Source of the DNA: Cladosporium halotolerans
Taxonomy: Eukaryota
DNA: 64,000 nucleotides
Direction of reading: 5' to 3'
NCBI RefSeq assembly: GCF_011745625.1
Contig: NW_027191460.1
Location: 682,001-746,000, forward strand
Shown: positions 1-8,492 of the stretch, in pieces
Layout of the letters: every line of letters begins with the position of its first letter
How positions within the stretch are numbered: the first letter of the stretch is position 1
Translations under genes and position numbers: made by a program
Notes under the pieces: model-generated
Seen by the model: the letters and a program-made list of their open reading frames with translations, nothing else
Told to the model about the DNA's origin: nothing
Database searches by the model: none

Positions 1-480
1 GCAGGAGCAGGCCTTCCAGTTCCTGTCGGCAGTCTCCCAGTCGCCCCCTGTCCGTGGAATCCACGACCCAGATGAGTGTATCGGTCTTTTCGAAGTAGTT
101 CTTCCAGTATGTGCGGAGTGTCTTTTGACCTCCGACGTCCCCTTCGCGCAAGTCAGCAGATTCCGTCGTGCGTTGGTTCACTGGGGCGGCTCACATATGT
201 TCAGTTTGTACCTAGGACTGAATCAGTCTTTCGCTCACTCAGTGTAGGCATGTGAAGGCTCACCCGTCATAATCGATGGTCTTGATAATGAATCCCAGCG
301 TCGGACTGACACTATTCACGTCTTCATTCATGATCTTCTTGACAATCGTGGTCTTTCCGGCATTGTCCAGTCCGCTTTCACGCGTCAGAAGTGACTGTCT
401 GGGGGCATCCAGGACACTCACAGCATCAGGATTCGCATCTCCTTGTCTTTAAGACGGGCCTTCCGGAGTATCGACAACAT
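1..480 (-). CDS. ARL2: ADP-ribosylation factor-like GTPase ARL2/Cin4 (3' end beyond window)
   Basis: Exons 480-422, 374-264, 211-195 and 141-<1, joined by GT-AG introns, give [29 protein letters not shown]...[26 protein letters not shown], with P-loop and WDVGGQ motifs typical of ARL2. Confidence 0.95.
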
Positions 481-5002: not shown

Positions 5003-7874
5003 CTAGAACCCGATATCAGCCAAAACCTCACATCCCCTCTCACAAACCGCCCTGACCCTCTCTCCCAAACTGCGGTTTGTACACTCAACGTCCAGTCCCT
5101 CCAGCCAAACCTTCGCCACGGTCTTGTCCACCGTGATCTCCAAGCCCGGCACAGGGATACCCAGCCCGTGCAACCTCGCCAGCTCCGCCGCCTGCGCCTT
5201 CTCCACTGCTACGCTGTCCTCGCCGTCTGCAACGGCCACCTTTGGCTCCGCGATGGGTTGGATGGCGGATTCGCCGAACTGTGCCTCAAGGAACATGAAC
5301 AGCCTGCTCAGCTTCTCCGCTGGGGTGAGCGTGCGCGCTGCGAGCGGGTGGCGCCTCTCAAAGTCGGGCTTGCTCTCCTCCTGTTCATGGTTGTGAGAAT
5401 GACTGTGCGCGCTGCGTTTGATGGCCGCCGGCGAGCTTTCGACGCTGAGCAGTACGGCCATGACGGCGTCGGCGATGGCGTCGTTGGATGCATTGCCTTC
5501 CCACTCTATCTCGAGCTCGCCTTGCTCGCGGCAGATGATGCGCACGGCGTCGTTCATAACGCTGAGGATTGTTTCGGGTCGGGGCTTTTCAGTCATGGTT
5601 TCATCTTCCGTGCCGTCTTCGAGCTTAGGTGTTGCCCCATTTGTAGTGCTGCCGTTGGGTTTCGAGTCGTGCGATTCGGTCACTTCGACACTGCCGAATG
5701 TGCCTTCCAGTGACCATTTGATCAGGTCGATGCCAGCCGCGCCGAGCGTGATGCGCTGCCGGCACGTGATGGCCGTGGTGTTCAGGCCGGCGTACTCTCT
5801 CAGATCTTCAGGCGCCATGAGCGAAAGCTTGAATTCGTTCTGCACCAGCACGCCGCTGATGACTTGCCCTTCGTCTTTCCTTCTCTTGACGTCCGTGCCG
5901 TCCTCGACCTCCTCTTCGCCGCTGGCTGGCGGACTAAGCAATCCGGCAATTGCCTGCGGGTTTACCTCATTCGCCAGCCGGCCCACGACCTTCGCTATCT
6001 TCTCCCTGCGGAATGGAATCCTGACTTCCTCGCAGTTCGCAGGCGAGTACACCTTGAACTTGCCAAGTCCCAGCAGCCTCGACCGCATCCTCATCATGTT
6101 GCCCCTCTCGCCGTGCACAAGCACAACAACAGGCGCGTCAACCTCCTCGATGAATGCCCGATTCTCCGCGCCGTCGACGTGCGCCGCGAAACTGAACTCT
6201 TGCACCGTGCAACGGCGTGGGATCATCACCTTATCTTCGCCTCCGGGCCCAGAGGCTTTCTTGCCCATCATCGGCCCGCCGCCACCCCTCTGCGTCATCA
6301 CCGCCGGGATAGAGTCTGGCTCCTTCATGATCTCCTTCGCCATGGTCCCCTCCACGCTGTATCCCGTAATCACGACGCCGTTCTTGCTCTCCGGCGCCCA
6401 CCGCTCTAGCAGCGTGCGTGACACGCCGTTCTGCAGCATACCAGGGGACGCAAGCATGACACAGCCACCTACATCGTCAAACCGGTCCAAGGACTTCAGC
6501 GAGCGAATGAACTGAAAATCCCATGGTCCTCCGCCACCACCATTCTCGCCCCCGCCCTCCGCACTGCTCAGCCGATTGTGCAGCTTCGACCGGATGTTGT
6601 CGTTCATGCTGTCGATGTACGTCTGGTACACCACCATGCACTTGCGCGCCAGCGCCGACGCGAAGTAGATCGGGTACCGCCGGTAGTCCGGGTGCTTCTG
6701 CCAGTACTCTTCGAGGATGAGCAGGAGCTCCTGCGCCATGCCGATCGCGAAGACGGGGAGCAGGGCGCGGCCGCCGCGGTTCAGGATGCCCGTGATGGAT
6801 TTCATGAGGGCCGTTTCACGCTCGGCGCGCGGGATGTGTGTGCTGATGCCGAAGGTTGATTCGGTAATCAGGCAGTCGACTTTCAGACCTCTGGGGATTG
6901 TGGCAGGGATCAAGTGCCGGTCGTTCTCTCGGCTATAGTCGCCGGTGAAGAGGACGTTGAGGCCGGCGATTTCGATGAGGTACATACATGCGCCCAGGAC
7001 GTGGCCGGCAGGGTATGGCGTGATGCGGATGCCGTTATGAGTGTGTGTCGTATTGAAGGAGATGGTTTGGATCTGCGGGAGAGTGGAGAGGATGTCGTGT
7101 TCGTTGAAGAGCTGGTCGACGCCGCCGCCGTCGTTGGCACCGGCTGACGCTGCGTGAGTATTTTGAACACGAACGGAGTCTTGCATGAGCCATTTGTAGA
7201 TTGCTTTCGTCGGGTGGGTCATGTAGACTCGGCCGGAGAAGTTGGTTTTGGCCAGGACGTATGGTAGAGATGCTGCGTGGTCCATGTGGAAACTGGGTGA
7301 AGTGGTTTGTTAGCTTTTATTCATTTGGTATTCCTCAACAGACATGCTTAGACACCGCGGCAGTAACAGGCTTGGTAAGAAGAAAAGGGATGGTCGCTCT
7401 TCTGAAAGGCTTTCATACAATGGCTATTTACGTGTGCTATTGGTCGGACCTTCAAGGTCAGTAGCACCAGCAGACATTGGGAAAGGAAAGCGAAACAAGT
7501 GGTGTCCAAGCCCGTTACTGCCGATGTGGTATTGACATGTCGAACAGAAGGCCGTGTCCGTGCAATGCGAACAGCTAGAGCTAAGAGCACAAGCATGTCG
7601 TTTTGAATGGGAGTACTTACTGTGTCATGAGCAGGATATCTACAGTCCCCAGATCGAACTCATCGTAGAAAGGGAGTGCTGCCAGACCGTCGAAAGCAGG
7701 GTGTATGCCTGCGTCCAACATGACGGTCTTTCCCTTGTATTGGATGATGTGACAGCTTCGGCCGACCTCGTTGCCGCCGCCCAGCGCGAGGAACATCAGC
7801 TCATCGGAGGGGTCCACCGGCTCTTGTTCCTCAACTGGCGGGTTCATCGCGGCATGTGACCGCTTGGCTGCCAT
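5003..7874 (-). CDS. YSH1: Pre-mRNA 3'-end endonuclease Ysh1/CPSF73 (metallo-beta-lactamase, beta-CASP)
   Basis: Exon 1 7874-7621 ([15 protein letters not shown]) and exon 2 7292-5003. Intron 7620-7293 splits the THFHMDH metal-binding motif. Also AGHVLGA, TGDYS, ASPGML and FAAHVD motifs. Confidence 0.97.
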
Positions 7875-8492
7875 GGTGGGCGAAATGCGGATGTGCTATG
7901 CGAGAGATTGTAGCTGGAAGCGCGTCGCGAGCGCGCGGCAGCTGGACTGTGTGCGCAGTTTCTGTCGCGAAGGAATGTCTTGCGGCTCGGAGCAATACTT
8001 TCGACGACGTTATATGGACACTGATGGGCAGTAGCGAGCGATCGAGTGAGGATGGGTATAGTGGGAGGTGAACAGGGAGAGGTTGTACAAGTCCGCGAAC
8101 TTCATTGGAATGGAGATTCAGGTGTCGAGGCAGAACGCGATGTGCTGCCGTGCTGCCTCAGGCTGCCACGAAGCTCGGCCCCCTCCGCCGCCGGCCCTCC
8201 GCGTTTGTCGCGGTGGATGAACAGCAAGATGCGACTTTCACAGCATCACAAGCAGCAGAAGCGCCAGCAACACCAAATCCACCCAGCACCACGCCGCATC
8301 CACTCACTCGCCATTTGCGCGACCCTTCATACGAATCCTCCTCTGCTCTGGACCGACGCCTAAGGCATGCGACACGCCATATAACCGTTCCCCCGCCTAG
8401 AGTGAAGGCGGCACTGCGCGTGCTCCTCTATACCACGACCACGACTCCCTACCGGCGCTTCATTACGGACGCGCCTTCCATCGACCCTCACC

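Follow-up and report, generated by a model that had tools for sequence, protein, structure and literature searches.

Judged from sequence comparison, the single intron of the YSH1/CPSF73 gene in the window, by which we mean the whole 64-kb stretch of DNA analysed here, is the form that an old, unusually long and conserved intron of this gene in the Dothideomycetes takes in Cladosporium. Its main parts are an 18-bp long-range helix and, within the loop of this helix, an AU-rich core, which is the most conserved part of the intron and was missed in the original prediction. Our tentative reading, to which we give somewhat less than an even chance, is that the intron contains an autoregulatory poly(A)/termination site that competes with splicing and is looped out by a zipper-like helix. 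The conserved arrangement suggests, rather than demonstrates, that the site is used by the 3'-end machinery, that a feedback loop exists and that the helix takes part in it.

The gene lies on the minus strand, starts with an ATG at 7874 and encodes a protein of 847 aa. The Pfam matches of exon 2, namely CPSF73-100_C (7.5e-72), Beta-Casp, Lactamase_B_6 (metallo-beta-lactamase) and RMMBL, together with the name 'endoribonuclease ysh1' carried by homologues of the window protein, identify the host gene as that of a core cleavage/polyadenylation factor. The intron, which reads GTAAGT...GCTAAC...CAG, interrupts the His codon of the T-H|FHMDH motif (Table 1); its coordinates, its place in the catalytic motif and its branch point had all been predicted correctly. 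Retention of the intron leads to an immediate stop (CAG TAA).

Table 1. Features of the YSH1/CPSF73 gene and its intron, numbered along the window
Feature	Position in window	Position in intron	Strand	Remark
YSH1/CPSF73 exon 1	7621..7874		-	84 codons + 2 nt; ends ...LLMT + CA
Single spliceosomal intron	7293..7620		-	328 nt, phase 2
5' splice site GTAAGT	7615..7620		-	GTAAGT in 25/26 long orthologous introns
Outer 9-bp stem, 5' arm	7591..7599	22-30	-	strain-specific; alone at chance level
Conserved long-range helix, 5' arm	7506..7523	98-115	-	
Inner hairpin	7434..7467	154-187	-	small ACC/GGU hairpin alone kept in relatives
Conserved AU-rich core	7410..7436	185-211	-	UAAAUA then UUGUAUGAAAG
Conserved AGAGCGACCA block	7391..7400	221-230	-	ends in CA; predicted cleavage region
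U/C-rich tract	7376..7390	231-245	-	immediately 5' of helix 3' arm
Conserved long-range helix, 3' arm	7358..7375	246-263	-	
Outer 9-bp stem, 3' arm	7341..7349	272-280	-	
Branch point GCTAAC	7309..7314	307	-	16 nt upstream of 3' splice site
YSH1/CPSF73 exon 2	5003..7292		-	opens T + FHMDH...; includes stop codon

A tblastn search with the exon 1 peptide gave 27 further loci carrying the orthologous exon. Of the 28 metagenome loci in which the exon junction is present, 26 have a GT..AG intron of 247-400 nt that interrupts the same codon, and in all 26 fungal loci position and phase are identical; the one long intron without GTAAGT at its 5' splice site, that of L020, has GTGAGT. The remaining introns of YSH1 in the relatives are all about 50-59 nt long (12/12), against which the intron studied here is oversized, with both its size and its core conserved, and the unusual length first seen in the window holds throughout the fungal loci. 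A distant eukaryote (L026) has a 42-nt intron at what is probably the same position. Similarity of their proteins, together with taxonomic look-up, placed the relatives in the Cladosporiales, Mycosphaerellales, Dothideales and Myriangiales. As a class, the Dothideomycetes are linked by these look-ups and by the names of homologues to plant pathogens, to black yeasts and to moulds of ubiquitous occurrence.

These comparisons bear on the idea that the inverted repeat is a functionless relic, left by a MITE or introner-like element (ILE) or by a template-switch mutation, or in a variant a target of RNase III/Dicer and nothing more. ILEs share with the YSH1 intron their occurrence in Dothideomycetes, a length above that of regular introns and a predicted structure that is stable, as stated in the excerpts of PMC3609843 and PMC4457414, and the window intron indeed folds better than its shuffled versions (-94.5 kcal/mol, z = -3.1, equalled by 0/100 shuffles). 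However, ILEs number hundreds of copies, occupy new positions and are quick to decay, whereas the YSH1 intron is single-copy and sits at an old position common to its relatives, with its structured parts conserved. The original prediction had named a multi-copy mobile insertion as the finding that would speak against it; BLAST found no second copy in the window, and in each of three related whole assemblies (X1, X10 and X11) only one contig matches the stretch at >=80% likeness. A position common to 26 fungal loci, and probably to L026, argues against insertion as the event that created the intron. Conservation of the arms and core matches that of splice signals, whereas the remaining sequence decays, and no target-site duplication was seen by eye beside the arms. 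Substrates of Rnt1-type RNase III are stems with an AGNN-type tetraloop; no AGNN-capped hairpin is present here, where the helix closes a 130-nt multi-element loop, and the Dicer/RNase III substrate that had been proposed found no specific support. As an explanation of the present-day intron, a neutral relic is largely refuted and we regard it as extremely improbable; an origin by insertion in the Dothideomycete ancestor is conceivable.

The 18-bp inverted repeat is real. It consists of 17 Watson-Crick pairs and, as predicted, a G-U on the transcribed strand as its sole mismatch, and it is prolonged by three pairs beyond a 2-nt internal loop (23 nt, 87%). Among 2000 dinucleotide-preserving shuffles of the window intron, the longest stem with at most one G-U was 13 bp (5/2000) and none reached 14 bp (0/2000), so that the 18-bp helix is far beyond chance. 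It encloses a multi-element loop of ~130 nt, and its conserved arms are located ~90 nt past the 5' splice site and ~45 nt ahead of the branch point. The two smaller stems of the original prediction also exist but are not conserved as such. The outer stem is a perfect 9 bp, but its 5' arm sits in a segment that is absent from other Cladosporium-like introns, and of the inner hairpin, in which 8 of 9 positions pair (7434-7442 with 7459-7467), the relatives retain the ACC/GGU part alone. Stems of at least 9 bp were found in 914/2000 shuffles, and therefore each of these two, taken alone, is at chance level.

A helix flanking the core recurs in most lineages. In 18 of 23 distinct introns it was reached by <=2/500 dinucleotide shuffles, and in 18/23 its pairing probability in the thermodynamic ensemble is at least 0.59 per nt; no significant helix was detected by the shuffle test in the other five (L011, L012, L013, L014 and L020). 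The sequences of the arms vary between lineages yet remain complementary. When G-U and A-C were compared between strands, the sense strand scored higher in 18/23, with L021 and L008 clearly opposite. In an alignment of 12 Cladosporium-clade sequences, 91.1% of cells pair compared with 29-53% when the partner is slid, and double changes occur at three helix pairs, one of which is UA in six sequences and CG in five while at the other two a single sequence differs at both sides. A covariance model built from these 12 sequences (R1) recovers all 12 of them (E 6.6e-15 to 9.4e-49); with default filters it did not find the distant lineages, and with filters off its intronic matches there were at noise level (L028 E = 0.49, L015 5.8, L022 8.9). 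MAFFT and RNAalifold applied to eight distant introns gave no consensus structure (0 predicted pairs), and the homology of the helix across lineages therefore rests on its position and on arm themes read by eye. Two near-identical relatives (X10/X11) differ by 12 listed substitutions, seven in the intron and five in exons, and by one intronic insertion; the helix arms and the core carry none of these changes, which given their small number could be chance (~0.09 by rough arithmetic). Taken together, the conserved length, the presence of a helix in most lineages, arms that vary between lineages yet stay complementary and, within the Cladosporium clade, arms conserved to the degree of splice signals support the selected pre-mRNA structure that had been postulated, with stems that are not absent from the orthologues.

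In 23/23 introns, a distance of 34-59 nt separates the core, which lies within the loop, from the 3' arm of the helix downstream. Among ten Cladosporium-like introns, mean pairwise identity is 0.92 in the core, 0.88 in the arms and 0.92 in the splice signals, compared with 0.42 in the rest. With the splice-site ends excluded, the most widely shared k-mers are TACATA (9/12 lineages), TACATAG (7) and TACATAGC (6), and the UAAAUA of the window core is replaced by UACAUA or UAUAUA in other lineages. The general order is UAYAUA, an AAUGAA-like A-rich word, CA and a U/C tract. The words that follow the core are AAUGAA (two loci), the one-offs AAUGCA, AAUGGA, AAUCGA and AAUCAA, or UAUGAA/UAUCAA, and then comes the U/C tract; Cladosporium-type cores, including that of the window, have UAAAUA with UAUGAA/UAUCAA instead of UAYAUA with AAUGAA. 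The predicted cleavage region follows ~20 nt past the A-rich word. A composite motif of the core occurs 12 times in 195.8 kb, both strands counted, and ten of these occurrences are cores of the YSH1 intron; it was found at no other gene, and at no gene 3' end, of the fungal loci in these 195.8 kb, and it is therefore not established as an ordinary 3'-end form in these fungi. The shorter TAYATA has 23 sites on the two strands of the window, several of them downstream of long open frames as judged by eye without gene models. Two other candidate functions were rejected as general explanations. A PUF site (UGUANAUA) suits some lineages, but UGUA is missing in L014, L029, L021 and the Cladosporium clade; a recursive or alternative splice site (ACTGAC, 6-8 nt, AG|GTC) can be read in the window, L005, L006, L008 and L011 but is missing in the L027 subclade.

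As a motif match, the core resembles two parts of a fungal poly(A) signal, its efficiency element and its A-rich element. In the excerpt of a study on Aspergillus oryzae (PMC3111234), an A-rich region at -29..-14 with AAUGAA as top hexamer, cleavage at CA and U-rich flanks are described, upstream words include UGUAU/UGUAUAU, and the yeast efficiency element is given as UAUAUA with the variants UAUGUA and UACAUA. For Neurospora, the excerpt of PMC5869017 reports an A-rich region at -30..-10, a U-rich surrounding of the site, a cut between C and A, AAUGAA as the most abundant word and an implication of AAUCAA in a premature site. The order and spacing of the core elements agree with these published signals, with the Cladosporium-type core as a weaker match, and the published spacing would put the predicted cleavage in the region of the AGAGCGACCA block with its final CA. 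Since the poly(A) signals of fungi are AU-rich and degenerate, agreement with their grammar counts as weak evidence, and this grammar leaves unexplained the AUAGCC(A) part, which is strongly conserved.

An AT-rich core followed by a pyrimidine tract might also be a TATA-like box with a fungal CT-box, that is, an internal promoter that would start a transcript within the 3' portion of the intron, with a protein truncated at its N-terminus as the product. CT-rich tracts are known near fungal transcription starts, a C/T-rich tract is located 25-40 nt beyond the core, and Aureobasidium-like cores contain TATATAA, with TATATAAT as the core of L019. However, the TACATAG or TAAATAG of most lineages makes a poor TATA box, a promoter has no need for a conserved RNA helix that straddles the core at fixed spacing, and the catalytic motif would be without its first histidines in the product. 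The contigs from an RNA library lie on exon 1 and in the intron's 5' half, and we consider an internal promoter very improbable.

If the intron does contain a poly(A)/termination site, the cleavage/polyadenylation machinery, of which Ysh1 is the nuclease, would recognise this site and rival splicing. At high 3'-end-processing activity, more of the pre-mRNA would be cut or terminated within the intron, giving a short transcript whose frame would end after 85 codons, at the UAA that the 5' splice site creates, and which would lack the catalytic motif; at low activity, the intron would be spliced and full-length Ysh1 made, resulting in negative feedback. The helix would loop the site out and reduce the path from 5' splice site to branch point from ~300 nt to ~134 nt, or to ~41 nt with the outer stem of the window strain, and through this shortened path a long intron could still be spliced in a short-intron fungus. 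The predicted cleavage region would also come to lie at the foot of the helix, a placement that may hold the site in a weak, tunable state. A structure-gated site of this kind would allow the endonuclease gene to read the cleavage activity of the cell, with the helix setting the balance between splicing and cleavage, a proposal we hold a shade more cautiously than that of the competing site as such. The RNA data consist of three low-depth contigs from one library run (X15) with possible DNA carry-over. One of them (7578-7792) spans the exon 1/intron junction unspliced and another (7442-7592) lies inside the intron, in a library that may hold DNA; the X15 contigs are without a spliced joint, a poly(A) end or a cleavage product, and they leave exon 2 and the 3' half of the intron (6900-7441) uncovered, a hole that at low depth and after filtering proves nothing.

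The same parts could act on splicing alone, with the helix as a zipper-type structural enhancer that makes an over-long intron spliceable and the core as the binding site of a regulator, possibly an Hrp1-like 3'-end factor, that tunes splicing against retention; retained transcripts would decay, and no cleavage or polyadenylation would take place at the core. Zipper stems are documented in Saccharomyces (PMC12350175, in part), and a protein-inhibited structural splicing enhancer is described in the excerpt of a preprint on RPL7B (10.1101/2025.03.14.643126), whose zipper-type stem is part of an autoregulatory switch according to the excerpts of both sources. As in RPS17B and RPL7B, the 18-bp helix forms a stem located past the 5' splice site and ahead of the branch point. 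The immediate stop codon in a retained intron and the unspliced junction contig from the RNA library are also in line with control by splicing, as is the lower pairing of the core, compared with the average over the intron, in 21/23 ensembles. The zipper definition, however, as given in the excerpt of PMC12350175 and derived for the S. cerevisiae spliceosome, includes a total linker of 42-85 nt, and the conserved 18-bp helix leaves 91 + 43 = 134 nt, beyond this range; it is the non-conserved outer stem, with 15 + 26 = 41 nt, that comes close to it. In addition, the loop in YSH1 carries a conserved AU-rich core, unlike those of yeast zipper stems. Control by splicing alone does not explain the poly(A)-signal order and spacing of this core, nor the origin of the length of the intron, as a short intron requires no zipper. 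A splicing regulator had been among the functions first proposed, and such a role is plausible; as the whole explanation, we think splicing control unlikely but the most serious of the alternatives.

Where the introns of a fungus are short, a long and conserved one is often the host of a small RNA. The intron might accordingly release, after splicing, a helix-closed piece of ~165 nt whose terminal stem protects it, as a stable RNA of snoRNA-like or other type with the core as its functional or protein-binding part, and a non-coding RNA of some kind had already been suggested in the original prediction. It would share with intron-hosted snoRNAs a conserved, stem-flanked element in an otherwise fast-evolving intron of a housekeeping gene, and a conserved core enclosed by a strong terminal helix fits such a product. 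The YSH1 helix, however, is much longer than a snoRNA terminal stem. The only Rfam match in window positions 7000-7900 at E up to 10 had E = 9.4, far below the gathering score, and the introns of nine loci gave none at E up to 1; C/D and H/ACA boxes were not seen by eye in the intron, including C/D boxes beside the stem. In the Cladosporium clade, AAA replaces the ACA of UACAUAG, and the sequence between the arms is poorly conserved outside the core. The searches thus lent no support to an intron-encoded RNA, which we consider improbable.

The preferred reading, an intronic poly(A)/termination site, has its closest parallels in the feedback through intronic polyadenylation that is known for CstF-77, PCF11 and RBBP6 (PMC7614891, in part). 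YSH1 shares with these genes, CstF-77 being su(f) in Drosophila, that it encodes a core cleavage/polyadenylation factor and that use of the predicted site would give a short transcript without a useful product. In CstF-77, the size of the intron and the strength of its poly(A) site are conserved, as the excerpt of PMC3708835 reports; the YSH1 intron likewise is an early intron far larger than its neighbours and of conserved size, and a poly(A)-signal-like element appears to be present within it. The logic expected by analogy with the CstF-77 system, as far as it is set out in the excerpts of PMC3708835 and PMC7614891, would be negative feedback through splicing versus cleavage. There are also differences. 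The host is the endonuclease gene itself, which goes unnamed in the list within the excerpt of the review (PMC7614891), and the setting is fungal, with introns of 50-60 nt. The 5' splice site of YSH1 is consensus-strong, unlike the weak one of CstF-77, and the candidate site, unlike that of CstF-77, is enclosed by a conserved long-range helix.

In the literature searched, we found no description of a regulatory intron in the CPSF73/Ysh1 gene. Even without the poly(A) reading, an element that is conserved like splice signals across lineages with otherwise unalignable introns needs explaining. If the poly(A) reading is true, the whole element of ~170 nt would offer a compact and genetically tractable fungal system in which the competition between splicing and cleavage, and the role of RNA structure in it, could be studied. 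As part of the structure-gated proposal, and with the same caution, a homeostatic loop at CPSF73/Ysh1 itself would extend over at least four orders of Dothideomycetidae and perhaps further (L009), and the intron may then be a point at which Dothideomycetes control their 3'-end processing.

In this analysis, we re-examined the long intron of the Cladosporium halotolerans YSH1/CPSF73 gene. Pfam places the CPSF73-100_C (7.5e-72), Beta-Casp, metallo-beta-lactamase and RMMBL domains in exon 2, and the exon 1 peptide alone matched no Pfam family. Among named proteins, the nearest belongs to Cladosporium fusiforme (89%), and many homologues bear the name "endoribonuclease ysh1". As originally predicted, the intron splits the T-H|FHMDH motif, interrupting the His codon between its second and third bases; its retention leads to an immediate in-frame stop (CAG TAA).

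Features of the YSH1/CPSF73 gene and its intron in the window
Feature	Position	Strand	Remarks
YSH1/CPSF73 gene	ATG at 7874	minus	847-aa protein, one intron
Exon 1	7621-7874	minus	84-aa peptide
Intron	7293-7620, 328 nt	minus	GTAAGT...GCTAAC...CAG
Exon 2	5003-7292	minus	
18-bp helix (5' arm with 3' arm)	7506-7523 with 7358-7375	minus	17 Watson-Crick pairs + 1 G-U
Core, Cladosporium clade	7410-7436	minus	about 26 nt
A-rich word	7410-7415	minus	
Conserved block with terminal CA	7391-7400	minus	about 20 nt after A-rich word
U/C tract	7376-7390	minus	abuts 3' arm

An alignment of close homologues, used to scan metagenome contigs, gave 29 loci (designated by L numbers), 28 of which contain the exon 1/exon 2 junction, and 26 of these 28 have a GT..AG intron of 247-400 nt at the identical position and phase. 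Once three duplicate loci are set aside, 23 distinct long introns remain, the window's not counted. Judged by taxonomy look-ups and by which named proteins they resemble, ten loci are Cladosporium-like, L011 is a more distant Cladosporiaceae-like locus, L017 is Hortaea-like (Mycosphaerellales), L014 is Myriangiales-like, others are Aureobasidium- and Neodothiora-like (Dothideales), several lie near an unnamed Dothideomycete, and L009 is more distant (about 66% identity to Aplosporella or Sarea proteins). The other YSH1 introns of these relatives measure about 50-59 nt (12 of 12). Extra short introns of this size, absent from the window's gene, occur in exon 1 of L014, L019, L020, L021, L028 and L029, and 43 codons into exon 2 of L015, L016, L019-L022, L028 and L029; the number of YSH1 introns thus varies, the long one being constant. 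At the long-intron position, L025 lacks a clear GT. An apparent 42-nt intron (CA|GT...AG|C before FHLDH) lies at the same codon position in the distant, AT-rich L026 (2956-3000; about 42% protein identity), so the position is probably much older than the expansion of the intron in Dothideomycetes.

The most conserved part of the intron is an AU-rich core between the two helix arms, which the original prediction had overlooked. Among the ten Cladosporium-like introns, mean pairwise identity is 0.92 in the core, 0.88 in the arms, 0.92 in the splice signals and 0.42 elsewhere. The k-mers most widespread over 12 lineages, splice-site ends excluded, are TACATA (nine), TACATAG (seven) and TACATAGC (six). 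Cores of other lineages have UACAUAG(CC) or UAUAUA(A), then an A-rich word and then a U-rich tract; the word is AAUGAA in two loci, with AAUGCA, AAUGGA, AAUCGA or AAUCAA once each elsewhere, and UAUGAA or UAUCAA in the Cladosporium clade and L011. A U/C tract follows the word, and the distance from UAYAUA to the start of the 3' arm is 34-59 nt in all 23 introns. In 21 of 23 ensembles the core is less paired than the average for its intron. Upstream of the core, at 7448-7462 (intron 159-173), AG|GTC comes 6-8 nt after a branch-point-like ACTGAC, an arrangement resembling an alternative 3' splice site or a recursive-splice-like site; this motif also occurs in L005, L006, L008 and L011, one subclade keeping it and the L027/L001/L003 subclade being without it.

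The predicted 18-bp inverted repeat is indeed present, and when the intron was shuffled 2000 times with dinucleotides preserved, the longest comparable stem was 13 bp (five shuffles); whole-intron folding energy is -94.5 kcal/mol (z = -3.1). The outer 9-bp stem and inner hairpin also exist, yet carry no weight alone because stems of at least 9 bp arise in 914 of 2000 shuffles. In an alignment of 12 Cladosporium-clade sequences, RNAalifold finds the helix divided by an internal loop into stretches of 9 and 8 pairs; the window's unbroken 18 bp is that loop zipped up locally. In this alignment 91.1% of cells pair; shifting the partner by 1-3 columns lowers this to 29-53%. Both sides are changed in three pairs, one being UA in six sequences and CG in five, the other two each differing in a single sequence; the covariation score was equalled by 8 of 500 shuffles. 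Comparing G-U with A-C tolerance does not tell which strand matters. Of the alternative accounts of the element, the least credible in our estimation is that it is a neutral relic or is targeted by RNase III; an internal promoter seems very unlikely.

Across all 23 distinct introns, the top-scoring local helix that pairs sequence upstream of the core with sequence on its downstream side was compared with 500 dinucleotide shuffles, and in 18 it was matched by at most two, the exceptions being L013 (9), L011 (18), L020 (164), L012 (242) and L014 (256). Arm-arm helix probability in full-intron ensembles is at least 0.59 per nt, likewise in 18 of 23. By eye, arm sequences vary by lineage around common themes, among them GGTCAC/GTGACC and CGGCAG/CTGCCG. 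An interrupted helix at the corresponding place in L009 (intron 61-117/260-317), matched by 1 of 500 shuffles, hints that helix and core extend together beyond Dothideomycetidae; in this 400-nt intron (1602-2001), which belongs to the fungal locus farthest from the window's among those having a long one, the helix surrounds an AU-rich stretch, UAUACA...UACAUC...A-rich...UUUUC. R1, a covariance model built from the 12 Cladosporium-clade introns, recovers all 12, and distant-lineage introns did not rise above noise in its search; automatic alignment of eight distant introns gave no consensus structure.

A mobile insertion, a possibility raised with the original prediction, is contradicted by a BLAST search of the intron against the window, which returned no match beyond the intron and its inverted arms. 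Three related assemblies each have exactly one contig over 6900-7900 at 80% likeness (X1 identical to the window, X10 and X11 about 1-2% different). An Rfam search of window positions 7000-7900 returned a single match (E = 9.4, far below gathering score), and a further search covering nine related loci gave no match within the introns; release of a non-coding RNA from the intron we consider unlikely. About 2.7 kb downstream of the intron, L021 carries a GC-rich, near-perfect palindromic hairpin (5744-5858), unconnected with the intron element. Two miRNA families match it below threshold (at best E = 1.3e-4 and 37.8 bits, where the gathering score is 90), as does R1, on both strands.

At the sequence level, the core matches the order and spacing of Aspergillus and Neurospora 3'-end signals. 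Published work describes, for Aspergillus oryzae, an A-rich region at -29 to -14 in which AAUGAA ranks first among hexamers, a cut at CA, flanking U-rich sequence and upstream words including UGUAU/UGUAUAU, together with the yeast efficiency elements UAUAUA, UAUGUA and UACAUA (PMC3111234), and, for Neurospora, an A-rich region at -30 to -10, U-rich sequence around a site cut between C and A, AAUGAA as commonest motif and AAUCAA implicated in a premature site (PMC5869017); a preprint reports comparable elements in Fusarium. In 195.8 kb, both strands, there are 12 occurrences of a composite pattern derived from non-Cladosporium cores. It is specific, as ten of them are YSH1-intron cores (two lie in AT-rich distant loci); none falls at the 3' end of another gene, which gives no sign that ordinary 3' ends of these fungi look like it.

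We tentatively suggest, at somewhat less than even confidence, that the element is an intronic poly(A)/termination site. In the one metatranscriptome run with this locus (X15), three contigs (7442-7900) are confined to exon 1 and the intron's 5' half, one of them spanning the 5' splice site unspliced. Their depth is 2-5, and they may stem from DNA carry-over; our caution stems from this possibly DNA-derived junction contig being the sole RNA-level support. Regulation of splicing alone is a somewhat unlikely alternative. Yeast zipper stems and the RPL7B switch are examples of intron helices that promote or gate splicing; the YSH1 helix has the form of a zipper stem and is joined to a core at fixed spacing. 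The linker separating the 5' splice site from the branch point is 91 + 43 nt with the conserved helix; the window strain's outer stem leaves 15 + 26 nt. Searches of open-access papers and bioRxiv (autoregulation, intronic polyadenylation, introns, Pezizomycotina) found no published description of such an element in Ysh1/CPSF73. According to a review, autoregulatory intronic sites are known in CstF-77, PCF11 and RBBP6, and conserved intron size is described as part of the CstF-77 mechanism. The poly(A)-site reading would follow the same logic as the CstF-77 and PCF11 loops, here applied to the endonuclease gene in a fungus whose introns are short: the helix would loop the site out, shortening the path from 5' splice site to branch point, and 3'-end processing at the site would compete with splicing and so may exert negative feedback on the nuclease gene.
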